From: a virus | Reading direction: 5' to 3' (one strand) | DNA: 64,000 bases | IMG/VR virus record: IMGVR_UViG_3300019776_000365 | Coordinates: 26,822 to 90,821 of that record | Shown: one piece after another, positions 12,975 to 64,000 of the stretch | Layout of the letters: every line of letters starts with the position of its first letter | How positions within the stretch are numbered: position 1 is the stretch's first letter | Translations under genes and position numbers: made by a program | The notes under the pieces: generated by a model | The model's database searches: none | Seen by the model: the letters and a program-made list of their open reading frames with translations, nothing else | Told to the model about the DNA's origin: nothing

Positions 12975-13667
12975 TTAATCGTAATTACAATTTAACAACA
13001 TTTTATTACTTTCTCCCCACATAAAATCTTCATAGTTTTCAATAGTACATTTAACCCCAAATTTACCTTTAATAATATCAATCAATTCATAAGTTGGTGA
13101 TATAAATAAGTCTTGATGAAATGTTCTTTGAAAAACCTGCACATTGCCTTTTTGTATAAATACACCAAGATTATCTTCTATCCATTCAATTATATCATTA
13201 GACCATACTTTAGGATCTAAATGTATTACAAAAATAGTTCCTTTCTTAAAATCTACATGTTCTAATAACTTACATTTGTCGAATGTACAAAATTCATTTC
13301 TAACACTCAAATTAAACAAACAGCATTTACCAACTATTAACTGATTTGCAAACTCTTTAAATGTTTTTTCATTGCAATACACTTTTATTGAGCTATAATC
13401 ATCAACTAAATATATCCATAAAAACATATTGCCAGCTTGTGATGTCTTATATTCTATTTTATCTATCACAGCGGCTATCATACAGCCTTTAAGGTCATTT
13501 CTATCAAGTATTTGCTCATTTAAATACGCAATGTTACTTAGATTCCAATTATCTGCTTTAAGCTTATATTCGCCTAATACGGAGGTTAAATTAAACCCTA
13601 AAACTTCTCTTTCTAATGATAGTAATTGTTGTTTAGTTGGATTAACTATTCTTTCTTTTTTTGCCAT
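12975..13667 (-). CDS. stand-alone protein resembling the C-terminal OB-fold region of DNA Pol III alpha (DnaE)
   Basis: LSLEREVLGFNLT matches DnaE ExExLGxYLS; KTSQAGNMFLWIYLVDDYSSIKVYC matches the TKxGxxMAFxxLED.xG.IEV OB strand pattern; no catalytic domains. Confidence 0.6.
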   Translation of the reverse strand: MAKKERIVNPTKQQLLSLEREVLGFNLTSVLGEYKLKADNWNLSNIAYLNEQILDRNDLKGCMIAAVIDKIEYKTSQAGNMFLWIYLVDDYSSIKVYCNEKTFKEFANQLIVGKCCLFNLSVRNEFCTFDKCKLLEHVDFKKGTIFVIHLDPKVWSNDIIEWIEDNLGVFIQKGNVQVFQRTFHQDLFISPTYELIDIIKGKFGVKCTIENYEDFMWGESNKMLLNCNYD

Positions 13668-14142: not shown

Positions 14143-14652
14143 TTACTTTTTAACCCAAACTACCAGTTCATCAAAATCTAAAGACCATTTGTTTTTATTG
14201 AAGAATTGCCCACTTAAAATACCGACGATATTAACACCATACGCATTATTTAGTTGTTCAAATGTATTCAAATTTATAACATCAAAAGAACATTCTTGCT
14301 CTAATACTCCACTAATATTTATGTTGATATAAGTTTCATAAGAATCTACTACAACCTCATGGCCAGTAATCGTGCTTGTTTTACCAGTGTTTTTTAGTAG
14401 ATCTTTATGTTTATCACAAAACGATCTACTAATACAATTATCGCTAGCACCGCTGTCTAAAAGCATATAAACATCTTCGCCAAATATAGTTGCTTTAATA
14501 ATTGGCAGCTTTGTAATATTGAAATTATCTTTAAAGCAAATTGAATACTTATTTTGTTTTTTTATCTTATTACTAAGATCTTTAATTATTAAATATACAC
14601 CAATTGCACATCCAATAATTAGCCCTGAAATATATACATATCCTAAAATCAT
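14143..14652 (-). CDS. membrane-anchored retropepsin-like aspartic protease
   Basis: N-terminal TM segment; LLDSGAS catalytic motif; GILSG near the C-terminus. Confidence 0.8.
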   Translation of the reverse strand: MILGYVYISGLIIGCAIGVYLIIKDLSNKIKKQNKYSICFKDNFNITKLPIIKATIFGEDVYMLLDSGASDNCISRSFCDKHKDLLKNTGKTSTITGHEVVVDSYETYININISGVLEQECSFDVINLNTFEQLNNAYGVNIVGILSGQFFNKNKWSLDFDELVVWVKK

Positions 14653-15171: not shown

Positions 15172-15654
15172 TTATTTATTATATCCACCAGTAGAACCAA
15201 ATCCACCACGAGATTCGTTATTAAAATGTTTTACTTTCTCAAACACCGGCCTGCCAATAAATATATGCCTAATTTTAGCCCACCACGGAGCGTCTTGAGT
15301 GAGTCTAATTTCAAACTGACATATACGTTCATACTTGTTTACTTCAGTCGCTTTAAGAGCAAATAAAGGACATTTCCATATGTCATTATTACCAATATAG
15401 CCTTTATTATAATTATTTGGCCCATCAATTACCCCATAATGGTTTAAAACAACTAGGTGTTTTTTAATACCAAGACTACTCCTGGGTACTATATTTGCTT
15501 GATAATACCTAGGTAGATTCATTGACAATCCTAATGACACTACAGCTTGACCGAATCTTTCAAACTTTATGTGTTCTGCTGATTTAAGATCGTACCAATT
15601 GCCATTCTTTTCAATTTTACACCCATTGTCGTGATATATTACTTGTATTTTCAT
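15172..15654 (-). CDS. dut: trimeric dUTPase
   Basis: YDL, PRSS, GVID, RICQF, RGGFGSTG motifs. Confidence 0.9.
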   Translation of the reverse strand: MKIQVIYHDNGCKIEKNGNWYDLKSAEHIKFERFGQAVVSLGLSMNLPRYYQANIVPRSSLGIKKHLVVLNHYGVIDGPNNYNKGYIGNNDIWKCPLFALKATEVNKYERICQFEIRLTQDAPWWAKIRHIFIGRPVFEKVKHFNNESRGGFGSTGGYNK

Positions 15655-22899: not shown

Positions 22900-24318
22900 T
22901 TAATACAGTATTAATGGCGTTTTAAATATTTGTTTTGAGTCTTCTATTAGATCAAAATATCCATAGTTATCATTAAATAGATTGTTGCATCTAGTAAAAT
23001 AAGTAGATCTTTCATTTATATAATCTAATAAATAAACAGATTCTTGCCCATTTGTTACAAGAATAATGTCTTCTAACGATGTTTTAACTCCTTGCTTATA
23101 CTCAACCTCTTCTGCATATTTTAAAATACTCATGCAAATAAACAACCAGTTAATAATTTTATATTTATTCAAAGTAGCATTATGCATTCTAAATTCAACA
23201 GTTTTACCGCCATTACCAAACAACAAATTGATAAAATTAATTGCATAATATCTGCGATTTATCTCCCATTTGCGATTTCTATCTGGATCTGATGGGTGAG
23301 GGTCATAAAATCCATTGAATTCAAAACCATCTTCTCCAGATAAATATTCATACAGCTTATCAAATTCTTCAAATTGAAGATCATCTGGCAATCTTTTGCA
23401 GTAATCCTTACCATGGCTTTTATATTCAGCGGTGTTAAAAATAGATCTTGGCATAATTGAAGATAAATCATCTTGAATGTCCACTAGAATATTATAAAGA
23501 TTCATAATTTTACACTTATCTAATGGGAATCCACCTAAATGCAAATGCACCGAGCATTCTTTGTCAATAAGACATTTATCATTAAGCTCGTCCAATTGGT
23601 TTAATAATAGATTTACACCATCTTTACCTTGCATTGGAATAGTTGTATACTCATGGCCATTAATAGAGCCATCCCTAAGTGGAATCAACCCTAATTGTTT
23701 GCATGTAAACTCTGGAATTAACCCACTAGATGTCTCAAACTCAAAGCCAAATGAATATTTATCTAGCAAATCAAACCAATTATTATAATCGAACTTAGCT
23801 TTTGTATATTTAGAATTGTTAATATCTTTAAATAAACTTATAATCTTATCAGAATTATACACCCTTTCAAAAGAATAATAATATTTATTATGGTAGGTTT
23901 TTCTTGATAAGTCATACCCAGAATACATTGCAGCTTTATAGTCAAAATACTCGCCCCTATTGCCAATATAAATCTTTGGAATAGAATCAAACACATTCAT
24001 ATTTATAACAGAAACATTTCCATTTCCATATGTTTGTATTTTAATATCAATTGATTTATCTTTCTCAAATCTACCAAATACATATTTATTATAGTCTTGT
24101 TTATATTCAACAATACCTATAGTTGTATTCTCTGTAGTCTTTAAATATCTTTGCAGTTCATTGTTGAAATAAATTTTTGGATTACCTTTTCTATACCACT
24201 TGCCATCAATATTAAAACAGTCAACATTCTTTTCAAAGAAATAATCGCCAATTTTAATACAGTCTTTTCTTAAAACCTCTTTACCTGATATTGTTGTTAC
24301 AAAATTTACTTGTGCCAT
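22900..24318 (-). CDS. putative amidoligase (COOH-NH2 ligase fold)
   Basis: FGFEFE, DGSI..HEY, CSVHLHLG, RYYAINF, TVEFRMH. Confidence 0.8.
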   Translation of the reverse strand: MAQVNFVTTISGKEVLRKDCIKIGDYFFEKNVDCFNIDGKWYRKGNPKIYFNNELQRYLKTTENTTIGIVEYKQDYNKYVFGRFEKDKSIDIKIQTYGNGNVSVINMNVFDSIPKIYIGNRGEYFDYKAAMYSGYDLSRKTYHNKYYYSFERVYNSDKIISLFKDINNSKYTKAKFDYNNWFDLLDKYSFGFEFETSSGLIPEFTCKQLGLIPLRDGSINGHEYTTIPMQGKDGVNLLLNQLDELNDKCLIDKECSVHLHLGGFPLDKCKIMNLYNILVDIQDDLSSIMPRSIFNTAEYKSHGKDYCKRLPDDLQFEEFDKLYEYLSGEDGFEFNGFYDPHPSDPDRNRKWEINRRYYAINFINLLFGNGGKTVEFRMHNATLNKYKIINWLFICMSILKYAEEVEYKQGVKTSLEDIILVTNGQESVYLLDYINERSTYFTRCNNLFNDNYGYFDLIEDSKQIFKTPLILY

Positions 24319-24341
24319 TTTATTATTTGTAATTTAATTAA

Positions 24342-25805
24342 TTATAGAAATCTTACTATCTCATCTGCTATCATTTCTTCTAGCATTTCATCGCTAATCA
24401 TACCCATTCTAATTCTAGAGTCAAGTAAAAGTGAATCTTTAGTTTGCTCATAAGATGGAATTCCAGCAGTTTTAAATTTATTAAACTCTGTAATTTCACC
24501 ATTACTGTTGCATTTATAAATCTCTTTGTCTAATGTGAAATATACCTGAAAAACACCACAGAATGGTAATATTGATTTAGTTGATGTATCAAAATGGTAC
24601 ATCTGATAGTCATTAGCACTGATTTCAAATGGTACTGGATGTACAGCAAATGGAGCTAAAAACACATCAATAAAATCATCGTCAGATTCTTGCTCTAATG
24701 CACTAATATATGCGTTTGCGCATAAATAGTCAAAATAGCTTTTAATCATAACTCCATCAATAAAGTAATAAGTAGATCCATAGGTTTCTGAATTAATTTC
24801 GTAACCACTATTGCTTAGCTTATACTCACCATTAGCTTTTTTATTATTAATGTAATAATACCCATCTGAAGATATTCCCATTTTTTTATTAACAAAAAGC
24901 TTTTGAGCTCGTATTTTATTTACAAATTCTTTCTCTGTTGGCTGGTTTGTACTGTGTTTGCTATTATAATACCCACCATAATCATAATCATCATAATCTT
25001 CATAAGAACCAAATGGCAGATATCTTTGACCAACAGTGCTTTTATAAGACAATTGTTTTGTTTGTTTTCTTTTAGATCTATCAATCTCTATTGTAGATTC
25101 AATATTACCGTTTTTAATTTTATAAAGAGTGTTACACTCCATGTCAACAATAGTATCATTGTCGTCCATTATGAATTCTAATGAGTTTTCCATTGATGAA
25201 AACCAAAATGAATTCTTATGATTAATAAAATATAACGGTCTTTCTTCATATAGTTTATCATCATTTTTATAAAACAATGACGCACCCTTGAAGATAAATA
25301 CTGTATTTAGATCTACACGACTATCCCAAAAAACAAAAGCACCAGCACCTTCATATTCTGATAATACCTTAAAGCCAGCTTTATAAACTATTTTACAAAA
25401 TATTTGAGAGTCAGTTTCGTGATTGCTATATGCAACATCATATGTATTTGCAAGTTCTTCATAGTTAATTAAAGTGCCATTATGAATCATAGCAAATACA
25501 GGCTTGTCGTTCTCATATATAACCACTGGTTGAGCTTGTTGTAGTCCTATAGCGCCTACTGATGCTTTTCTACAATGACCTAGAGCTATTGTTGGTTTAC
25601 CTATTTTTGCATCAATAAATAAACCATTTTCTACAAAATCTTTGAATTTTTTGTTTTTATCAGCACCATAAGCTACATCTGTTTTTAATTTACCGTGATG
25701 AAACACCCCACATGAATCACCACCTCTAGCGTCATTGTACAACCCTAATACTTTGAATTTATTTTTATCGTAATTTGTTCCAATATGTCCAAAAATTCCA
25801 CACAT
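24342..25805 (-). CDS. class II (Ntn) glutamine amidotransferase
   Basis: N-terminal MCGIFG, RGGDSCG, GHCRKAS, HNGTL.N, TDS. Confidence 0.9.
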   Translation of the reverse strand: MCGIFGHIGTNYDKNKFKVLGLYNDARGGDSCGVFHHGKLKTDVAYGADKNKKFKDFVENGLFIDAKIGKPTIALGHCRKASVGAIGLQQAQPVVIYENDKPVFAMIHNGTLINYEELANTYDVAYSNHETDSQIFCKIVYKAGFKVLSEYEGAGAFVFWDSRVDLNTVFIFKGASLFYKNDDKLYEERPLYFINHKNSFWFSSMENSLEFIMDDNDTIVDMECNTLYKIKNGNIESTIEIDRSKRKQTKQLSYKSTVGQRYLPFGSYEDYDDYDYGGYYNSKHSTNQPTEKEFVNKIRAQKLFVNKKMGISSDGYYYINNKKANGEYKLSNSGYEINSETYGSTYYFIDGVMIKSYFDYLCANAYISALEQESDDDFIDVFLAPFAVHPVPFEISANDYQMYHFDTSTKSILPFCGVFQVYFTLDKEIYKCNSNGEITEFNKFKTAGIPSYEQTKDSLLLDSRIRMGMISDEMLEEMIADEIVRFL

Positions 25806-25842
25806 AAGTTAATTGTTGTTAATTTATAATACTTAATAGTTT

Positions 25843-25879
25843 AAAAAAAAAGAAACGCCTAGTTTTTACGCTAGGCGTT
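25843..25879 (-). terminator. Rho-independent terminator
   Basis: AACGCCTAG/CTAGGCGTT stem; the A-run on + is the U-tail on -. Confidence 0.7.
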
Positions 25880-25886
25880 ATTGCAA

Positions 25887-26705
25887 TTACATAATAGCTT
25901 CTTCTTGATAGATTTTGAATTTACTTATAATTGATTTAGCTAAATCCCTATCACCAGTATTAATACACTGAATAATATCGTTTTTAGCTTCATTAATGGC
26001 ATCGAGTCCAAACTCATTAAGATATTCAATAGCCATTAAAGTTCTGTCTAACGACCATTTAAACAGTTCTCTTGAGCTGATAAAATGACCAGAAAGAACT
26101 CTATATTCGCATCCGAATGGAGTTAGCCTGAAGCATCCAGCCTTACCATACAATCTACGTCTATTCATGTCACCATCAAGAAGCGCAGATGGCACCCCAA
26201 CGAATAAATCCATTGCTTTAATTAGGTTTAAAGATGCATTTGGGTTAAAATCATCATATCCAACATGGATGTGACATCCCGCCGATCTAAGGTTTGTATT
26301 TTGACCGTTCGGCTTTTCGTTTTTGTTTGCAGTCCATGCATTATAGTCTGGATCACAACCGAACATTTTAGATTCATCTGATTGTAGCTGGTCATCAGCA
26401 AACACACCAGAAGCCGCATATACTGGTTTTAAATTAAATGAGCTAAGATATTCAGTAATATACGATTTCATTAGCTCTACATTATCCGCCACAACTGATG
26501 GGCTACTATGTGGTGGTACATTAAACTCACCTAACACATTATCTACCTGAATTGCATATCCTTTGCCTAGTGATAATATGTGAGATGGTTCATCTTTAGT
26601 TCCTTGAATAATACCAATAGAACTAATTAGTTTGCCATTATTGTCTGAAATGAAAAACTCTGGATCTGTGCCTAATGTTACGTTTTTATATTGAAATGGT
26701 TTCAT
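25887..26705 (-). CDS. phiEco32-like COOH-NH2 ligase type 2
   Basis: LGTDPEFF, QVDNVLGEFN, FGCDPDYNAW, RSAGCHIHVG, RRRLYGKAG, EYR. Confidence 0.85.
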   Translation of the reverse strand: MKPFQYKNVTLGTDPEFFISDNNGKLISSIGIIQGTKDEPSHILSLGKGYAIQVDNVLGEFNVPPHSSPSVVADNVELMKSYITEYLSSFNLKPVYAASGVFADDQLQSDESKMFGCDPDYNAWTANKNEKPNGQNTNLRSAGCHIHVGYDDFNPNASLNLIKAMDLFVGVPSALLDGDMNRRRLYGKAGCFRLTPFGCEYRVLSGHFISSRELFKWSLDRTLMAIEYLNEFGLDAINEAKNDIIQCINTGDRDLAKSIISKFKIYQEEAIM

Positions 26706-26739
26706 TTTATTTTATTTTAATAATTAATAAATAACTGTT

Positions 26740-26925
26740 TTAAATTCTTCCACCAATAATATCGCCATTATTTCTTACAGCTATATATAATTGATCTGGA
26801 ATAAAAGCATTTTCCCATATTGGATCTATACCCATTGGTTGTCCTTGTAATTTAATATGTTTTCTAACATTTCCCAAGGCAGCCATCATTTTCTCTGCGT
26901 CAAATTTTACATCTTTTACTTCCAC
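26740..26925 (-). CDS. hypothetical protein
   Basis: 61-aa ORF within the cluster. Confidence 0.55.
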   Translation of the reverse strand: MEVKDVKFDAEKMMAALGNVRKHIKLQGQPMGIDPIWENAFIPDQLYIAVRNNGDIIGGRI

Positions 26926-27602
26926 TTCTTTTTGTGGTTTAGCTGGCTTTTAGGCTGTTCTTTTTTAACCACATCATCAAGAAGTTCATTTACCAACATA
27001 TTGATAAACTTAACAGCTTCTGACTTTTTAGGCATATATTCAGGATGACCTTGAATACACAAGCAATTTGTTTTATTATAATAAACAATCTCTGGTTCTA
27101 CGAAATTATCCGGCAATTTTTTCTCGTTATCCCATCCATCTAAATATGTTTTAGATAGATTTTTTGAAGATTTTGCAATAATCGTATAGTCAGATGGATT
27201 CATATCAAATGGATACATCATTTGATGATGTGTACTAGTGATATTAAATTTAATATTAGCACCCAACACTTCAATTTCGTGGTCGCCATTGCAATGCCCA
27301 GTAGTGTGTTGCACTAATTTACCCCCAGATTTAGCTGTGCAAAATTGACTTCCACGGCATATTCCAACTATTATTTTCCCCAAATTAACAGCTTTTTCAA
27401 ATTCTTCAATTTCATGAAGATCTCTAGATGTGTTATAATACGTTTGTTTACCTTTTGGTTCGTCATATAATGATGGATGTACATCTTCTCCGCCTGTAAA
27501 TATAACTAAATCAGCCAACTCCATGTCGTCAACCAATTCAAATTTACATGTTAGAAAATTAGCATAATTTGTTGCACCACTTACTACATATACTTTTATC
27601 AT
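26916..27602 (-). CDS. class I glutamine amidotransferase-like (peptidase C26 / PuuD-like)
   Basis: FTGGEDVHP, GICRG.Q, HHQ, QGHPE. Confidence 0.9.
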   Translation of the reverse strand: MIKVYVVSGATNYANFLTCKFELVDDMELADLVIFTGGEDVHPSLYDEPKGKQTYYNTSRDLHEIEEFEKAVNLGKIIVGICRGSQFCTAKSGGKLVQHTTGHCNGDHEIEVLGANIKFNITSTHHQMMYPFDMNPSDYTIIAKSSKNLSKTYLDGWDNEKKLPDNFVEPEIVYYNKTNCLCIQGHPEYMPKKSEAVKFINMLVNELLDDVVKKEQPKSQLNHKKKWK

Positions 27603-28366
27603 AATCCAATAATTTTTTTATTATTTTTTAATAGTTTTAATGTCTTTTTATCTATTGTGTTTGTTTTCATTAAATCTACAAACTGGTCGCTTTCTTCATA
27701 GTCACGAAACACCTCAAGTTTACCTCTATAGCTATCATCTAGTTGAATAGATTTTCCCACTTTATTAACATCCTTGTCGTTTATATTCTTGATTATATCT
27801 ATATCAGTAATTGTTGATTTCGCTCCAAAAGAAGTGCATTCGTGAATACCTGAATTAAAACCTGGCATAATACTATTAGCCAATACGTATCTTTTAGATA
27901 AACTCAATCTTTTAAATCCACAGGTATTTTTCATAGCAAAAGCAAGTTTAACTGGGGCTAATACTTTCATCTCATATAGATTCCTAACCATAGTTAATGC
28001 TAGTTTAATCTTATAATGAGACATATTCTCAAAATCAGAATGTACCACTATGAATTTACCATGAACACCATCACTAGGAAAATTATCTTTAATTTCAAAT
28101 TTGAATTTAGTTAATTTAGTTACCCATTGTAGATATTCTTTTATTTCGTCCATAGTTAATGGGCAATAGTTGTTTAGATTTTCATCTAAATCACTTTCAT
28201 CTAATCTAACTAAAACCCCAAAATAACCATTATTGTTTTTTGGTTTAAAAGAATCACCCCCACTAAACGCTCTACTAAAACATGCTGAATTTACAAATAT
28301 TTTTTCTTCACCACCATTTACTTTGTAGTAATATGTAGTTGAATATGACAGAAATTTAATATTCAT
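27599..28366 (-). CDS. hypothetical protein
   Basis: 255-aa ORF ending in TGA with an ATGA overlap onto the next gene. Confidence 0.75.
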   Translation of the reverse strand: MNIKFLSYSTTYYYKVNGGEEKIFVNSACFSRAFSGGDSFKPKNNNGYFGVLVRLDESDLDENLNNYCPLTMDEIKEYLQWVTKLTKFKFEIKDNFPSDGVHGKFIVVHSDFENMSHYKIKLALTMVRNLYEMKVLAPVKLAFAMKNTCGFKRLSLSKRYVLANSIMPGFNSGIHECTSFGAKSTITDIDIIKNINDKDVNKVGKSIQLDDSYRGKLEVFRDYEESDQFVDLMKTNTIDKKTLKLLKNNKKIIGL

Positions 28367-28368
28367 CT

Positions 28369-29184
28369 TTAAACCATTTTTTTAAGTTGTTCAATATATT
28401 TTTCTAATGTTATATCTCCAAGTGAGCTTGCGGAGTTTGTTTCTAAAATAATAAAGTAAGGTTCAAAATCATCTTTTTTGTTTTTTTCTGTTTGAACCTT
28501 AACATCACATGAGCAAATATCTAAACCTACCGCTTGCATAGCTTTAACGCATTCTTCAACTATTTTATCCCAGTTTTTAGGTTTTTCAAATAAATCATTG
28601 TCTTCAAGAATCCATACTGAATTCATGTCGTGTCTATGCCATCTAACTTCTGCATCATTTTTAAGCATTTTACGACATGTGTAAAAGCAACCATCTTTAG
28701 TTACGTGCAAACGATACTCTTTAGTGCAATTATAATATTTTTCAATAATATAATTTCCTACATTATGATTAGCTACAAATTCAGATAATTTTTCTTGATT
28801 TTCTATATAGAAAATACCATTACCTTTTGAGCTATTCTTATGTTTGATGATTGCTGGGAATATATCCCAATTAAATTCAGCATTATTGAAATATAATGGA
28901 GACCATTCTGCTGACTTTATTTTATGATAATCAAACCATCCCTTCATTATAATCTTATCACCACTTTTTGCACAAGCTTCTGCTGTGTTTATCTCACGAA
29001 TTGGCTTACCTAACTTAACTCCTTTTGGGAATATCTTTTCAGTTGGTGTTGTTGAGCCCATTCGTAATACAGTTCTAACATCGCAATCTATTAGATTCTT
29101 CAGTGGCTTTGCTGAGTAATTTCTACTTCTAATTTGTAATTTCATTTTATCATAAAAATAAAGGGCTATATTTCTATAGCCCAA
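28369..29184 (-). CDS. ATP-grasp ligase (RimK-like)
   Basis: FPAIIK...SKGNG, IEKY, EYRLHV, LD.C..DV, ILETNSA; likely start is the ATG at 29145. Confidence 0.8.
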   Translation of the reverse strand: MGYRNIALYFYDKMKLQIRSRNYSAKPLKNLIDCDVRTVLRMGSTTPTEKIFPKGVKLGKPIREINTAEACAKSGDKIIMKGWFDYHKIKSAEWSPLYFNNAEFNWDIFPAIIKHKNSSKGNGIFYIENQEKLSEFVANHNVGNYIIEKYYNCTKEYRLHVTKDGCFYTCRKMLKNDAEVRWHRHDMNSVWILEDNDLFEKPKNWDKIVEECVKAMQAVGLDICSCDVKVQTEKNKKDDFEPYFIILETNSASSLGDITLEKYIEQLKKMV

Positions 29185-29414: not shown

Positions 29415-30422
29415 TTATTTTATTAAATTAAAAATTGTTTCTTTGAATATCTTTTCACCATGATTTCTATAAAGATCAAATGAATCTTTTGATAGTAATT
29501 TAGTTGGTATTTCTATTTGAGGTAACTTAAACTCATTTGCTATTTTAGCACCATAAATTCTACCGTGATTTTCATCTTTATCAAAATCATTGTCATATAA
29601 TACAAAAATGTTTTTAAATCTACTTTTTAGTTCATCTACTACTTGTTTTTTAGGAAATCCACTTTCTGACTGTAATGATGTGCATGGTATCCCAGCATGT
29701 TTCCATATAGTTAATGCGTCTTTTCTTGATTTGGTTATAATCAACACATCACCAGTAGATGGTAGCTGCTGCCATAAGTCCCATACGCCATCCTTGTGAG
29801 ATGTAAGCCATTTAAAACACTTGCTGTATGGTTGATATGTCTTTATAGTTTGAATATTATCCTTAGCTTCTAAATAAGCATACGCCAATCTATCCGCTGG
29901 TATAATTGATTCTTTTAAATCACCAAATCTATCTATTCTTTTATAGAATATATGAGTTATTGGATATACATTGCCAAATCTAAGAAAATCCTCATCTAAA
30001 CCACCTTGCATCCAAAACTCATTGTCATAGCTTCTGAATTTTCTAATTTTAACATTAAGTTCTACGTTTGAACTATATACTTTGTGTTGTGATTTTTGCT
30101 TTTTGATTTTATCTGGTTTTTCATCTAATGATTCTATGATATCTTTATGAATTTTCTCAACACACGATTGAAATGGAAGCTTCCATGTTTTAATAAAAAT
30201 ATCAATTAATCCGCCATACTCGTCTGTGCTAAAATCATGAAATATTATTCTATTAGATGAATTGTAGTATAGCCCAAAGGAAGGACTTTTATCCTCCCTA
30301 AATGGGCTATTGATTACAACAGGTATTCTATCTATATCAAAGTAAAAAGACAATATATCAAATTCTGTTTTGTAGTCAAATATATCACTTAATGATATTG
30401 TTTTACTTCCTTTAGATATCAT
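29415..30422 (-). CDS. DNA primase (crAss-type DnaG-like)
   Basis: SPFREDKSPSF, IITKS.KDA, TOPRIM YDND, KD..D. Confidence 0.85.
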   Translation of the reverse strand: MISKGSKTISLSDIFDYKTEFDILSFYFDIDRIPVVINSPFREDKSPSFGLYYNSSNRIIFHDFSTDEYGGLIDIFIKTWKLPFQSCVEKIHKDIIESLDEKPDKIKKQKSQHKVYSSNVELNVKIRKFRSYDNEFWMQGGLDEDFLRFGNVYPITHIFYKRIDRFGDLKESIIPADRLAYAYLEAKDNIQTIKTYQPYSKCFKWLTSHKDGVWDLWQQLPSTGDVLIITKSRKDALTIWKHAGIPCTSLQSESGFPKKQVVDELKSRFKNIFVLYDNDFDKDENHGRIYGAKIANEFKLPQIEIPTKLLSKDSFDLYRNHGEKIFKETIFNLIK

Positions 30423-31573: not shown

Positions 31574-32360
31574 TTATTGATAAATATATTGATCAATGTA
31601 ATCTCTGTTTTGTGTAAAAATTGGAATTTCTGTGTCAATAAACCATTTATTTCTAACAACACCATTTGCTTCAATTTCTTTTTTAATAACACAAGAGCCT
31701 CTTTTATAATGTGTTTTAAAATCGTTAAAATTGATATCTTTTTCTATAAAAAGTTTTTCTTGAATTTGATTACAATTTTTATTTTCTAAACTTTTATGTG
31801 AAAAATTAGTTCTCCCAACCATTTGGATTGCATTTCTTGTTGCATCTTGTTGTCTCCAAATAAAACAATTACAAACTTCTTCTTTTGGTAAATTAAATAC
31901 ACGTGAATCGAATACAGCTTTATTAAATCTGTTTAACATAGTGTTTTTTTTAAGTTTATCATCTAATTCATTATTGTCAATACAATTATTCACGTTTTCA
32001 ATAAAATACTTATTGAAAGCTAATGTCGCTAATGAAGCTGAAATAGAACACATTTTTTTTTGGATGTTTTTTATCAAACCAAGATTGGGTTGTGATATTT
32101 TCATAATCAGTTAGAACTAATGTTATTTCATCTGATTGTGTATAAGCAATTTTACAACTTTGGATATTTTCACAAAGGAACTTTGCTGTTTCTTGCATTG
32201 TTTTAATTAAAACATCGTCAAATGGTTTTTTAAACCCTCTTGTGAATGTGTGAAATGCTTTACCATCCAATCTTATAATTGTTGGACTTCTTCTCATTAG
32301 AAAACGTCTTTCGATATTTTCATACTGTTTCATCCTATCGCCTAAACTATCTTTTTTCAT
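31574..32360 (-). pseudogene. Thg1-like tRNA(His) guanylyltransferase / 3'-5' polymerase, split by a one-base homopolymer frameshift
   Basis: LGDRMK.YE, IIRLDGKAFHTFT, YTQSDEITL lie in one frame; S.SAS, FDSR, WRQQDATRN in another. The break is at the A6 tract (32067-32072) next to an A9 tract (32053-32061). Confidence 0.8.
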
Positions 32361-32465
32361 AATTATTTCTTTCTTTTTTTTGGTTGAGCTCCACTGATAT
32401 AATGGGTTACATAGATTAACTGACCTTCGCAAGATCCAATACAATATTTTACCTCATGCATATTA

Positions 32466-33179
32466 TTATTTATAAAATTCGTTAATCCTATCCACCACAT
32501 ACCCTAGGTCATTTGGTATGTATAGTTCTTCAAACATACCAAATGGACTTTTAGGAGAGCTACAGAATTCATCTTCATTTGTAATAAACTCTTTTACTAC
32601 TTTTTTAGCACCAGCATCAAACCTACTTTTACCAACTAGTGTTATATCAAACAAACCTTCTGGCGTGGAGTATTCGTCCACCATTTTGCCGGTGGTTTTA
32701 AATTTCACATAAACCCTACCATCTTGGCTAGGCACATCTTCACCATGAGCTAAAACAAATACATTTCTATCTAATGTGCTGTATTTATCGATAGCAGAAA
32801 AAAATTTACCCATGAAATAACCAATTTTTTTCGGTGCTTCCCAACCCGACTTTAAAGCATTATCCATATACCAGTCTTGCATCATATAGTTAGAATCATC
32901 TACAATAACATTTGTAAATGGACTATTTGGTGATGCCAATTTATCTAACACGGTTGCAACAACCTCTGGATTGTTGGATATAATACGATTACCTTTCGCT
33001 AATTGATCTGGTGTAGTTAAAATATAATCTTTCGCATTAGCAAATGGCAGCGGCTTACCTTTTACGCTAATTACAAAAGTTTTTTTAGGATCTAATCCTT
33101 TAATATTTAATTGTGGAATTGAACCAAAACTTGATGATTTTCCAAAACCGCTTTTTGCTAATACTAGAATTCTGCTCAT
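32466..33179 (-). CDS. AAA-family ATPase (Sak4/AAA_24-like recombination ATPase)
   Basis: Walker A AKSGFGKS, IVDD, LAH, KTTGKM, KSP.GMF, IPNDL. Confidence 0.75.
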   Translation of the reverse strand: MSRILVLAKSGFGKSSSFGSIPQLNIKGLDPKKTFVISVKGKPLPFANAKDYILTTPDQLAKGNRIISNNPEVVATVLDKLASPNSPFTNVIVDDSNYMMQDWYMDNALKSGWEAPKKIGYFMGKFFSAIDKYSTLDRNVFVLAHGEDVPSQDGRVYVKFKTTGKMVDEYSTPEGLFDITLVGKSRFDAGAKKVVKEFITNEDEFCSSPKSPFGMFEELYIPNDLGYVVDRINEFYK

Positions 33180-34344
33180 TTCTTTTTGTTTTAAATAAAA
33201 AATTAATAGTTTTAAATTTCTCTGCTTCGTTTATTTTGTTTTTATGCATTAGATTGTAGAACCTCTCTAACTCTGGTTGATTGTTAGATAATGGTAACTC
33301 CATAAAGAAATTAACCTTACCATCAAAGTACAATGGGCATGTCATACCATTACCACCTTCACGAGAAATCATAATTTCCATAAATCTAATGTTATCCCTA
33401 AACTTATCTATAGAATAACCCATATATTCATGAATATCATGTCTAAATGGGCTAAAGATTCCTAACATAATGTTACAATCTCTTGAGGTCAACTTATTAT
33501 CACCGAGATCCGCTACAGACGGTTTAAGTTTATTAAGCTTTACATTTTCAGTAGATTCACCAGCTAATGCCTGTTGCTGTATTGCCACTGGAATATACTT
33601 ATAATCATCTTTTAGCTCAAGAAAATACTTTGAAGATAGTCTGCTCATAGATTTGTGCAAGTCCTCACCACCCTCTGGTGTTATTAAACCTATGTGGTCT
33701 GTTATAACCAAAACATATTCATCTGGATCATTAGGTTCATAATAGTCATTAACCACAGTGGGGGTAATTTCTCCTGTAGCTTTATCAACTATATTAATAG
33801 TCTTTTTATGCCACTTACCATTAGCTTCTGCATATTTTTTCATGAACTTCATAATACCAGTTGGATTCCTAATATCAGATATAATAGTAATACATTCCTC
33901 AAAGAAATCGTAATACTTTTGATATTCTGGCGAATCCATAATGTCAATTATTTCTTGGCTTAAAGGCTTACCTTTTGTAACTGAGTTTAGTTCTCGCTGA
34001 TCTATTCTAATTTTGCCATGAGATAATTTATATAATAAATGACATAAAAACTGTTTGTATTTTTCTTCTGCTGATATTTCTAAGCTAAAATAAAATATCT
34101 TTAATCTTATCTTATCTGGATTATTAAATGCATAAAAGAATGGGTCATATAAAAACATCTTATCTGCTAATTGAGTCTTACCAACTTTTTGCTGTGCCGT
34201 GACAATTATGTACTTACCCTTCTCTATACCAGGCCATTCTTGACTAAACCTAGGAAAGCTACATGGTATGCAGTTGATCTTACCAGATAAAACTCTTTCT
34301 CTACGCCTAATTAAGTCATCCCTAGTTCTTTCATATAGTGTCAT
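33100..34344 (-). CDS. DnaB-like replicative helicase
   Basis: AQQKVGKT, YFSLE, ITDHIGL, IQQQ, SREG. Confidence 0.85.
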   Translation of the reverse strand: MTLYERTRDDLIRRRERVLSGKINCIPCSFPRFSQEWPGIEKGKYIIVTAQQKVGKTQLADKMFLYDPFFYAFNNPDKIRLKIFYFSLEISAEEKYKQFLCHLLYKLSHGKIRIDQRELNSVTKGKPLSQEIIDIMDSPEYQKYYDFFEECITIISDIRNPTGIMKFMKKYAEANGKWHKKTINIVDKATGEITPTVVNDYYEPNDPDEYVLVITDHIGLITPEGGEDLHKSMSRLSSKYFLELKDDYKYIPVAIQQQALAGESTENVKLNKLKPSVADLGDNKLTSRDCNIMLGIFSPFRHDIHEYMGYSIDKFRDNIRFMEIMISREGGNGMTCPLYFDGKVNFFMELPLSNNQPELERFYNLMHKNKINEAEKFKTINFLFKTKRNEQNSSISKKRFWKIIKFWFNSTIKY

Positions 34345-42037: not shown

Positions 42038-42195
42038 TGTAGATGACAGGATTCGAACCTGTAACTAAGAGTTGCGTGGGCTATACCTTTAAAGAGGTTT
42101 TCAGGATTGACTATTGAGCCAGTACATTCCCGTACTACAACTATTCCCTACTTTTTAATTACTACCGCTGCGTCTACCAATTTCGCCACATCTAC
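42038..42195 (-). ncRNA. tRNA-like RNA with a ~107-nt insert in place of the anticodon/variable arms
   Basis: Acceptor GTAGATG/CATCTAC-A, Leu-type D region TGGCGAAATTGGTAGACGC, T arm ACAGG-TTCGAAT-CCTGT. Confidence 0.7.
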
Positions 42196-44830: not shown

Positions 44831-44901
44831 AGGAGTATCGTTTAACGGTAAGACATCAGACTTCAACTCTGATTTTGTGGGTTCGAAACCTGCTGCTCCT
44901 G
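44831..44901 (+). tRNA. opal suppressor tRNA (anticodon UCA), tRNA-Trp-like body
   Basis: Acceptor AGGAGTA/TGCTCCT, discriminator G, anticodon arm TCAGA-CTTCAAC-TCTGA (TCA at 44863-44865), T loop TTCGAAA; no long Sec-type variable arm. Confidence 0.92.
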
Positions 44902-44907
44902 CCGATA

Positions 44908-62207: not shown

Positions 62208-63206
62208 ATGGCAGGACAATTAGGTAAATTTCAAATGTTGGGGTTTCAATCTTGGAAGGGATTGACAAAAAACAACCACATTGGAGCGATTTACAATGCA
62301 CAACCACAGAGAGCTACAAACCTTATGGTTCAATTGCTAGCTACTCATCGTGGTAAAACTCTTGAAGATTATTTAAAACAATTCCCAACTAAATATTTCG
62401 ACACAGATGACGATTATTTTTGGGAGATCATCGGTAGTTCTCGTCGTAACTACCCACTTGTAGAAGCTCGTCACGCAGATGGCTCTGTAGTTGATGGTAA
62501 TGAATTTGCAGGTGTAGCTGGAGCTCCGTTTTACTTGGTATTTTCAGAAGACTGGGTGGCTGACGGAGAAACTATTGTTGGAGAAAAAAATGAAGTATAC
62601 CCTATTAGAAATCTTGGTGAAGCAAGAATGGAGGGTACAAATGCGGTATATAAAGTAGAACTGATGGGTGGAGTACTTGATGGTATTCCAGCAGAAGAAT
62701 TGGCTATGGGTAAACGATTCTCTTGGGAATATGCTCCTGTAGAATCTACTCGCTCTAAAGGCGTTGGTGGTGTTCGTTATACTAGCCCTGTGGCAATGCG
62801 TAATGAGTGGACTACACTTCGTATTATGGAGCGTGTGCCTGGCAATATGCTTAACAAAAAGCTAGCAGTAGGTATACCAGTTATTGATAACGAAGGTAAA
62901 AAACTCGTACATAGTATGTGGATGCACCACGTCGAATTCAAGGTTGAAGAAACCTTCTCAGAATACAAATGCAACGCTATTATGTACGGTAAATCAAACC
63001 GTAACTCTAATGGTGAATACCTAAACTTTGGTAAATCAGGTGAAGTTATTAAGATGGGTGATGGTATTAGAGCTCAAATGGAAGTGGCTAATACAATCTT
63101 CTATAATGATAACACTGATATTTTAAAACTTATTGAAGACGCTTTGTACGAACTGTCTGAAAGCAAACTTGGATTTTCAGATCGTAAGTTTGTGCTTCGT
63201 ACTGGT
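62208..63206 (+). CDS. major capsid protein, exon 1
   Basis: WKGLT..NH.G, R.YPLV, GEKNE.Y, MRNEWTT.R, G.GIR.Q; the coding frame hits TAG soon after FVLRTG, where intron features begin. Confidence 0.85.
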
Positions 63207-64000
63207 GGAGTTCGCCAGGTAGCATAGAAATATGTTATATACAATTGGGAAATATCGGTGAAGGCCACCAATAAAAAGGCTAATACCGAGATGGATTTGA
63301 AAAATATAAAATGAAAAGTCATGAACTTGAAAGAAATTATAAAAACTCAAATTGATGCTGAATCAGCTATAATTGGAACTTTAATCGCAGATGGAAGTAT
63401 ATCATATAGCAGAAGAAACAGCAAAGGTAGTGTTGAAATTACACATACATCAAGAAATTTAGATTACTTAAAATTTAAAAAAGAAATATTTGAAATTATT
63501 GATGGCGTAAAATGTAACATAAAACCTAAAAATAAAATTACAGAAAATAAAACATATGAACTATTTAGATTAACAACAAATAATCACGATTTGTTTTCTA
63601 CATATAGAGATAAAATGTATGTAAAAGAATCTGATAAAAGAAGAAAGTTGTTAATAAAAGATCATTTAGAAAAGATGTCAGACCTTGGTTTATTTTTGTT
63701 GTATTTAGATGATGGCACAATGAGAGTTAGGTATTATGATGGAACTGATAGAATACGAGAAATAAAACTACTATTATGTTTAGATTCATTTAAACTAGAA
63801 GAATTAGTTATGATGAAGAATTGGTTTGTAGAAAGATATAATATACAACCAAACATAAACAAACATGGCAATGGGTATAGACTTGTATTTAGCACTCAAA
63901 AAACAAAAGATTTTTTGAATATAATTTCAAAATATCAAGATTTTGTTCCATCAATGAAATATAAATTTCTTGAATATTATAATCTATCGTAACGCATAGG
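63207..64000 (+). mobile_element. group I intron in the MCP gene (extends beyond the window)
   Basis: P1 CTGGT|GG...TCGCCAG with a U-G pair at the splice site; P/Q-like AATATCGGTGAA...AATACCGAG; contains an endonuclease ORF. Confidence 0.8.
63321..63992 (+). CDS. intron-encoded double-motif LAGLIDADG homing endonuclease
   Basis: AIIGTLIADGS and LFLLYLDDG motifs; PSMKYK near the C-terminus. Confidence 0.88.
   Translation: MNLKEIIKTQIDAESAIIGTLIADGSISYSRRNSKGSVEITHTSRNLDYLKFKKEIFEIIDGVKCNIKPKNKITENKTYELFRLTTNNHDLFSTYRDKMYVKESDKRRKLLIKDHLEKMSDLGLFLLYLDDGTMRVRYYDGTDRIREIKLLLCLDSFKLEELVMMKNWFVERYNIQPNINKHGNGYRLVFSTQKTKDFLNIISKYQDFVPSMKYKFLEYYNLS

Follow-up and report, generated by a model that had tools for sequence, protein, structure and literature searches.

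A stand-alone DnaE C-terminal-like gene in the polymerase slot of a Steigviridae-like crAss phage without a recognizable DNA polymerase: a candidate adaptor to host Pol III

The virus record IMGVR_UViG_3300019776_000365 (90,821 bp) carries, within the 64,000-nucleotide stretch analysed here (bases 26822-90821 of the record, hereafter the window, to which coordinates refer unless stated otherwise), a gene at 12975..13667 on the − strand. Its 230-aa product, P0001, is, judging from profile comparison and domain order, a non-catalytic homolog of about the last 210 residues of DnaE, the alpha subunit of bacterial DNA polymerase III (Pol III), and comprises a pre-OB motif, an OB fold and a C-terminal domain. 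The gene stands where related phages keep their DNA polymerase, and the complete genome is, by the profile and translated searches described below, without PolA, PolB or Pol III alpha. DnaE contacts single-stranded DNA (ssDNA) through its OB domain and the tau subunit of the clamp loader through its C-terminal domain. In the preferred mechanism, the DnaE-tail protein might act as an adaptor between the host replisome and the phage replication forks; tau binding, ssDNA binding and recruitment are all read from homology and gene context, and a probability of roughly 0.45 is assigned to this mechanism.

The DnaE-tail gene was delimited as an open reading frame (ORF) and characterized by profile–profile, hidden Markov model (HMM) and Foldseek comparisons. 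Its frame stays open for only six codons farther upstream, so the N-terminus of the protein is not cut off. The pre-OB motif (residues 16-29, 13581..13622, − strand), which is preceded by 15 residues, reads L-x-x-E-R-E-V-L-G-F-N-x-T-S and is invariant in an alignment of seven sequences, P0001 and its six close homologs; within it, E19-R-E-V-L-G24 aligns to the E-x-E-x-L-G-x-Y-x-S-x-H-P block found directly before the OB fold in DnaE. The OB fold (residues 59-134, 13266..13493, − strand) was recognized from the strands of an AlphaFold2 (AF2) model, from VIA-align and from a weak Pfam match, which is to tRNA_anti-codon only and covers residues 65-116. The C-terminal alpha/beta domain (residues 144-217, 13017..13238, − strand) is, according to hhalign, the putative counterpart of the tau-binding domain of DnaE, and it aligns with the part of another protein, P0028, that matches Pfam PF20914 (DNA_pol_IIIA_C). 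No PHP, palm, thumb, finger or HhH/beta-binding parts were found in P0001, and the internal beta-clamp motif of the Q-x-x-L-F type upstream of the OB fold is absent from the P0001 clade, in which the N-terminus is short. The original prediction, made by eye from the sequence, had described a 230-aa − strand ORF with an E-x-E-x-L-G-type motif near its start, an OB-fold-like pattern after the motif and no PHP, palm or finger domains, and each of these points held: the motif aligns to the DnaE block, the OB pattern is recovered by AF2, VIA-align and Pfam, and the three catalytic domains are missing by both Pfam and a full-length DnaE HMM.

The homology to DnaE was revealed by profiles. The six close homologs of P0001 (42-60% identity, 218-257 aa) are all unannotated, no informative family for P0001 was found in PHROGs, and sequence searches of the PDB with P0001 alone and with a profile of the seven sequences gave chance-level matches only, with no DnaE among them. 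Searched against 1.84 billion representative proteins, the same profile gave 23 matches, mostly stand-alone proteins of 180-296 aa. One match, at residues 962-1091 (E 6.8e-4), was to the 1166-aa P0029 from a Fibrobacterales genome, a canonical DnaE by its PHP, Pol3 alpha, finger, HHH_6 and OB domains; the match begins 46 residues ahead of the OB domain, at the E-x-E-x-L-G block. As well, P0028, which has PF20914 above threshold together with an OB domain and lies on a 1066-bp contig, is probably a real DnaE truncated by the contig end, while P0023 is certainly a truncated DnaE, as its cluster includes a protein of 1133 aa.

In profile–profile comparison with hhalign, for which the full-length DnaE proteins of Pseudomonas phage Y1 and fecal phage MT839029 served as DnaE references, the close clade matched P0028 with 96.6% probability (E 5.8e-10, residues 12-212) and three full DnaE C-termini with 95.5% (E 1.4e-8, residues 4-212). 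When 18 stand-alone members were compared with the three full DnaE C-termini, the probability rose to 97.7% (E 1.6e-12) over 207 columns, covering residues 5-216 and reaching the last DnaE residues, with an identity of about 20% between P0001 and DnaE. Moreover, a full-length DnaE HMM of 27 sequences was run unfiltered (--max) against all six-frame segments of the genome in both codes, and its sole match in the genome was the DnaE-tail ORF (E 1.8e-5, HMM positions 966-1135 of 1179).

The predicted structure agrees with this assignment. The AF2 model of P0001 has a mean predicted local distance difference test (pLDDT) of 69 and is unconfident for residues 1-42, so that the pre-OB motif is of low confidence, while the OB barrel (59-134) and the alpha/beta domain (144-217) are formed. 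Foldseek placed 4iqj, the Thermus Pol III alpha-tau-DNA structure, first (E 8.6e-6, 249 columns; alignments to 4iqj span 219-249 columns) and 2hpi fifth, and VIA-align placed the OB domain of Mycobacterium tuberculosis DnaE1 (residues 998-1099) first, with Z 11.6 and a root-mean-square deviation (rmsd) of 2.9 over 93 aligned residues. A match to DnaE, on which the original prediction depended, was obtained both by profile and by structure.

Direct terminal repeats and a CheckV completeness of 100% show the virus record to be a complete genome. Pfam searches identified the crAss virion proteins Crass_capsid (1e-124), crAss_AuxCP, crAss_MUZ (4e-226, with TGA read through), CARG1 and CARGO2, and the portal protein has its nearest relatives in Steigviridae, for instance cr108_1 (63% identity), and in the Bacteroides phages DAC15/DAC17. 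Based on its virion proteins, its portal and an order of the replication module in common with cr108_1, the phage is assigned to Crassvirales and is Steigviridae-like. The stretch was found in one sequencing run only, an aquatic metagenome that is possibly the source sample itself, and no RNA sequencing run among the listed runs contains it.

No candidate for PolA, PolB, Pol3 alpha (PF07733) or PHP (PF02811) was found in a six-frame Pfam search of the complete genome, and the full-length DnaE HMM gave no match to an N-terminal DnaE half anywhere in it. A split DnaE gene with its N-terminal half elsewhere was ruled out by these negative PF07733, PF02811 and DnaE HMM scans. PF00136 is an unreliable PolB detector for this clade since it missed the PolB of a relative, G011, and the PolB test was therefore repeated with the G011 protein itself; tblastn with this PolB and with the PolA of another relative, G005, gave nothing in this genome or in that of the close relative G003 (all E >0.09). 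The − strand ORFs are all <620 aa and the larger ones are assigned, with products comprising ribonucleotide reductase (RNR), RNA ligase, metallophosphoesterase, a PD-(D/E)XK nuclease, a phiEco32-like amidoligase cluster, primase, a Sak4-like ATPase and a DnaB-like helicase. Among the giant + strand proteins, only a region with zincin and SF1-helicase domains and the crAss virion domains were found.

The original prediction that no ORF of PolA or PolB size is present in the replication module was borne out across the complete genome by Pfam and by tblastn with the clade's own PolA and PolB, and neither a polymerase nor an N-terminal DnaE half turned up in the rest of the genome. Its inventory of the module was largely right, in that a DnaB-like helicase (33100..34344, − strand, Pfam DnaB_C), a DnaG-like primase (29415..30422, − strand, Pfam Zn_ribbon_DnaG and PHROG 12622), RNR, dUTPase and a PD-(D/E)XK exonuclease are present, but the single-stranded DNA-binding protein (SSB) that it listed was not confirmed: no canonical SSB (PF00436) candidate was found in the genome, and the sole SSB candidate is a conserved 318-aa viral-only protein beside the primase, with a faint DUF669 lead.

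The absence of a recognizable polymerase could also mean that the phage has a novel one, to which the DnaE tail would serve as an accessory subunit tethering it to DNA or to the clamp loader; an unassigned ORF or a Thg1-like palm-domain protein, for example, would then be the enzyme. Several conserved unassigned ORFs do exist, including a co-inherited 103-aa gene, and a Thg1-like nucleotidyltransferase is present. However, no unassigned − strand ORF is >318 aa, and the 103-aa protein has no polymerase-like fold. The Thg1-like gene (tRNA-His guanylyltransferase, phrog_4717; 31574-32444, − strand) is split into two overlapping ORFs, of which 32010-32444 corresponds to profile positions 2-100 and 31574-32104 to positions 96-240, a sign of a frameshift that could be programmed, an error or the result of decay; as well, no homolog of it was found at 1e-5 in G003, G002, G005 or G011. 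An accessory role of this kind would be quite improbable.

A polymerase hidden by recoding was likewise considered and dropped, because TGA read-through fuses only + strand virion genes, none with a polymerase domain. The DnaE-tail gene lies within a 33-kb − strand block (approximately 10.6-43.7 kb) flanked by two + strand blocks, an arrangement that had been read by eye and that GC skew corroborates by setting the block apart as a transcription unit of its own. When TGA is taken as sense, the + strand late ORFs fuse to proteins of 1351-1900 aa and the full-length muzzle protein is restored, and the − strand block gains no giant ORFs and no in-frame TGA. Read-through is thus confined to the + strand late genes, and the DnaE-tail gene is read by the standard code. 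A suppressor-type tRNA with the anticodon UCA is located at 44831-44903, at the head of the late block.

The neighbourhood of the DnaE-tail gene corresponds to the place of the polymerase gene in related phages. The annotation of cr108_1 gives, in order, RNR, dUTPase, a 185-aa gene, an 82-aa gene, DNA polymerase I, thioredoxin, metallophosphodiesterase and thymidylate synthase. Gene order is the same in the IMG/VR relative G005, where a 671-aa PolA follows an Asp-protease-like gene, and in G011 a divergent PolB of 647 aa fills this slot, so that the order dUTPase, Asp-protease-like gene (the unannotated 185-aa gene in cr108_1), small ORF and polymerase is kept in all three. In the present phage, the dUTPase (15172..15654, − strand, PHROG 135) is followed by two small ORFs, the 169-aa Asp-protease-like gene (14143..14652, − strand, Pfam), a 68-aa ORF, the 103-aa gene, the DnaE tail, a 58-aa ORF and a phrog_6721 protein. 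The core order PD-(D/E)XK nuclease, Asp-protease-like gene, homolog of the 103-aa ORF and DnaE-tail gene is found in both G003 and G002. The Asp-protease-like gene serves as the upstream anchor of the slot, its homolog preceding PolA in G005, PolB in G011 and the DnaE-like pair in G003 and G002, and the dUTPase, in the same order in cr108_1, G005 and G011, is the second upstream anchor. The DnaE-tail gene and its 103-aa partner thus occupy the polymerase slot.

The 103-aa gene (P0030; 13642..13953, − strand) overlaps the start of the DnaE-tail gene by 26 nt and is also directly upstream of it in G003 and G002. Its all-beta product belongs to no known family; the AF2 model (pLDDT 87) is a small beta barrel without a convincing fold match, and no match was found by PDB sequence search or by Foldseek. 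A PilZ-type barrel was tried and rejected, since the best VIA-align score (Z 5.3, rmsd 3.7, 71 aligned) is within noise. A retroviral-type aspartyl protease domain is present in the Asp-protease-like protein, whose N-terminus is hydrophobic. The PolB of G011 (G011:C1:87876-89819, equal to L187:7876-9819, − strand), in a phage whose portal is 63% identical, represents an in situ PolA/PolB swap and was identified only by a weak PDB match to Escherichia coli Pol II (E 0.0095).

The distribution of the gene follows the absence of a polymerase. Among 49 phage records related by the portal protein, 26 of them at least 90% complete, the DnaE-tail gene is present in two, the closest long relatives G003 (98 kb, 97% complete, portal 66% identical) and G002 (a 57-kb fragment, portal 70% identical). 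No PolA, PolB or Pol3 alpha was found by Pfam in either of them, nor in G003 by tblastn with the clade's own PolA and PolB. Of the relatives that are at least 90% complete, 23 of 26 have PolA, G011 has PolB in the slot, G014 resembles G011 by Pfam only, and the remaining one is G003. Within this portal-relative sample, the DnaE tail and a polymerase are mutually exclusive as far as these searches detect them. The suggestion in the original prediction that the gene goes with polymerase loss was supported in that only polymerase-less relatives carry it, all in one clade. Its premise that crAss-like phages usually encode a polymerase has to be tempered, as polymerase-less crAss-like phages had already been published.

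This distribution also bears on the possibility that the product is a plain ssDNA-binding protein, whose OB fold acts as an SSB or as partner of the Sak4-like annealase and whose DnaE ancestry is functionally irrelevant. The clear OB fold, the want of a canonical SSB in the genome and the presence of a Sak4-like annealase would fit such a role, given that Sak4-like annealases work with a cognate SSB. However, the PolA and PolB relatives have the same helicase, Sak4 and primase module without the DnaE-tail gene, so that the presence of the gene tracks the missing polymerase and not a need for SSB. In addition, conservation is highest outside the OB fold, in the pre-OB motif and the C-terminal domain, and the 318-aa protein beside the primase offers, if only as a faint lead, another SSB candidate. 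A plain ssDNA-binding function seems unlikely on these grounds.

The DnaE-tail gene appears to be under constraint, as suggested by intact ORFs, the invariant N-terminal motif and a divergence like that of its neighbours. In the carriers the ORFs are intact and of similar length, with 36-46% pairwise identity, the same range as for the primase, nuclease and helicase genes; dN/dS is 0.27-0.46 where computable, although dS is saturated and the ratio lends weak support. These observations weigh against a functionless relic, the remnant of a DnaE gene that would at one time have taken the place of PolA and would since have been lost to decay. The genome does indeed have no more of a DnaE gene than its 3' part, and polymerase swapping in tailed phages, including that from PolA to PolC-family, is documented in one study (PMC11348598). 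But ORFs of 218-257 aa have stayed intact and the motif invariant across homologs down to such identities, at a rate of divergence like that of neighbouring essential genes, and more than 15 stand-alone members exist; a relic is therefore scarcely credible.

In the adaptor mechanism, the polymerase gene would have been replaced in situ by the DnaE-tail gene in a Steigviridae-like crAss lineage, and the phage, keeping its own helicase and primase, would have its DNA copied by the host polymerase. With a helicase and primase of its own and no polymerase, the phage must have the host polymerase brought to its forks. The DnaE-tail protein might dock, as alpha does, on a single tau protomer within the host Pol III holoenzyme, and its OB fold and/or invariant N-terminal motif might hold ssDNA or a phage replisome part, whereby the host polymerase would be recruited to phage forks. 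Tau and the clamp are known handles for bringing host Pol III to phage forks, and phage SPP1 recruits host polymerases through a contact between its helicase G40P and host tau. The complete scenario, in which the phage gave up its polymerase and kept the docking tail in the slot, the tail plugs into host tau and host Pol III replicates behind the phage helicase and primase, is put forward tentatively, as a possibility rather than an expectation.

The same homology to a tau-binding tail would suit a decoy or inhibitor, which would occupy the alpha site of host tau, or the ssDNA at host forks, so that host replication is uncoupled and shut down. Phages are well known to encode inhibitors of host replisome parts, and a competitive inhibitor would be expected to look like just such a catalytically empty tail. 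However, a phage without its own polymerase needs the host enzyme working, and the PolA and PolB relatives, which would gain equally from host shut-off, lack the gene, whose place is in the polymerase slot. A decoy function appears distinctly unlikely.

Several points weigh against the adaptor mechanism. A protein filling the alpha site of tau could displace the polymerase as well as recruit it, and the only tau examined is a short form of 431 aa in which no C-terminal domain is obvious; it comes from the same Fibrobacterales genome as the nearest DnaE. The structure-only match of the modelled OB fold is unspecific, with the OB folds of RPA and tRNA synthetases within 1 Z unit (Z 10-11); as generic OB folds score alike, the DnaE assignment rests on sequence profiles and domain order and not on fold alone. 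For the C-terminal domain, the Pfam PF20914 threshold is reached by P0028 only, with P0001 itself below it, and it is the profile–profile alignments that cover this domain. The close clade is also, in its aligned sequences, without the clamp-binding extension seen in distant family members. Finally, because the carriers form one clade, the mutual exclusivity of DnaE tail and polymerase counts as approximately one evolutionary event, to which one fragmentary second lineage, G001, can be added.

The wider family comprises more than 15 stand-alone members among the 1.84 billion representatives. Several distant members have about 50 extra N-terminal residues, which align to the DnaE segment holding the internal clamp-binding motif, and pentapeptides resembling this motif (QLSLF, QFDLF, MLSLF and MNNLF) occur in P0022, P0026, P0014 and P0011, of which P0026 lies on a 95-kb contig. 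That partner-docking motifs are kept in catalytically empty proteins argues that the family acts through contacts with the host replisome. By tblastn against 50,697 GenBank phages, no match was found for P0001, P0011 or P0016, and the matches of P0022 were limited to the C-terminal ends of two phage DnaE genes of full length. Scans of IMG/VR with A1, P0011, P0022 and P0026 gave nothing, while that with P0016 gave two loci. The distant crAss-like G001, a 35-kb fragment, has a 296-aa stand-alone member between a DnaB-like gene and a phrog_6721 gene, and its 20-kb replication block has no ORF >410 aa. This is suggestive, though not conclusive, of a second lineage pairing a DnaE tail with no polymerase.

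The phrog_6721 gene is also the downstream neighbour of the DnaE-tail gene in the present phage (12198..12806, − strand, PHROG). Its product is 64% identical to the G001 copy (L005:4865-5479), whereas the other proteins common to the two phages are 24-40% identical, and further relatives are found in Fusobacterium and Clostridioides phages; it may have undergone recent horizontal transfer. The idea, formed by eye, that it is a ThyX was dropped as it had no support from a PDB sequence search.

Some further features of the genome were observed. The phiEco32-like cluster (22900-29184, − strand) encodes an amidoligase_2, a class II GATase, a COOH-NH2 ligase, an amidotransferase of the peptidase C26 type and a RimK-like ATP-grasp protein, and its gene order is conserved with Steigviridae cr108_1. 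The major capsid region (window 62208-63992, + strand) corresponds to no more than positions 2-331 of the crAss capsid profile, which has 496 positions; the capsid ORF ends at 63227 and is followed by an ORF at 63321-63992 (+ strand) with a LAGLIDADG-like motif, which suggests that the capsid gene contains an intron with a homing endonuclease and that its 3' exon lies past the window end; no intron was found at the capsid gene at the Rfam gathering score. An Rfam tRNA match at 42038-42195 (− strand, 38.4 bits) spans 158 nt, far above tRNA length, and looks like a tRNA with a large insert. As well, a 313-aa RNase H-like 3'-5' exonuclease with a C-terminal zinc ribbon is encoded among the virion genes outside the window (L001:4256-5197 in genome coordinates, + strand).

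If the adaptor mechanism is true, this would be the first viral mimic of the tau-binding tail of a replicative polymerase, and it might represent a general route to polymerase loss in crAss-like phages. For the replication of polymerase-less Crassvirales, the DnaE tail provides a concrete, testable candidate that is small and easily expressed. Should it bind tau, it would exemplify a new viral takeover of a cellular replisome by copying the docking module of the polymerase, and would offer a means of probing alpha-tau coupling in Bacteroidota-type replisomes. Should it not, it would still be a clear example of a non-catalytic fragment, kept under constraint, in place of a polymerase gene. A full-text literature search for phage tau mimics gave nothing relevant. 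No description of a stand-alone DnaE C-terminal module in a polymerase slot was found in the available passages of the literature on Crassvirales and polymerase swapping, and no stand-alone forms in the available portion of a survey of bacterial Pol III alpha architectures.

Polymerase-less crAss-like phages and in situ polymerase swapping are already known. The available part of one study of Crassvirales describes in situ swapping of DNA polymerases, as well as the lack of a polymerase in the epsilon group and some environmental phages (Yutin et al. 2021, PMC7886860). The present phage resembles these cases in that a slot is exchanged with its neighbours kept, and it is itself environmental and polymerase-less. 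It differs from the swaps in that part of the study in that its slot holds a non-catalytic tail and a 103-aa gene, not another polymerase family.

Compared with the bacterial DnaE C-terminus (4iqj, 2hpi and 7pu7), the phage protein has the same order of parts, the E-x-E-x-L-G motif, the OB fold and the C-terminal alpha/beta domain, but it is a separate 230-aa gene without catalytic or HhH/beta-binding domains and without an internal clamp motif. It is also unlike the full-length phage DnaE proteins of Pseudomonas phage Y1 (L003:5235-8792, 1185 aa) and fecal phage MT839029 (L004:80-4024, 1314 aa), which are complete polymerases whose C-termini resemble the distant family members. Among phage proteins that take hold of the host replication machinery, lambda P captures DnaB, and staphylococcal phage proteins bind the beta clamp. 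Unlike SPP1 G40P, lambda P and the staphylococcal clamp binders, none of which is a polymerase homolog, the handle proposed here would be the polymerase's own docking tail.

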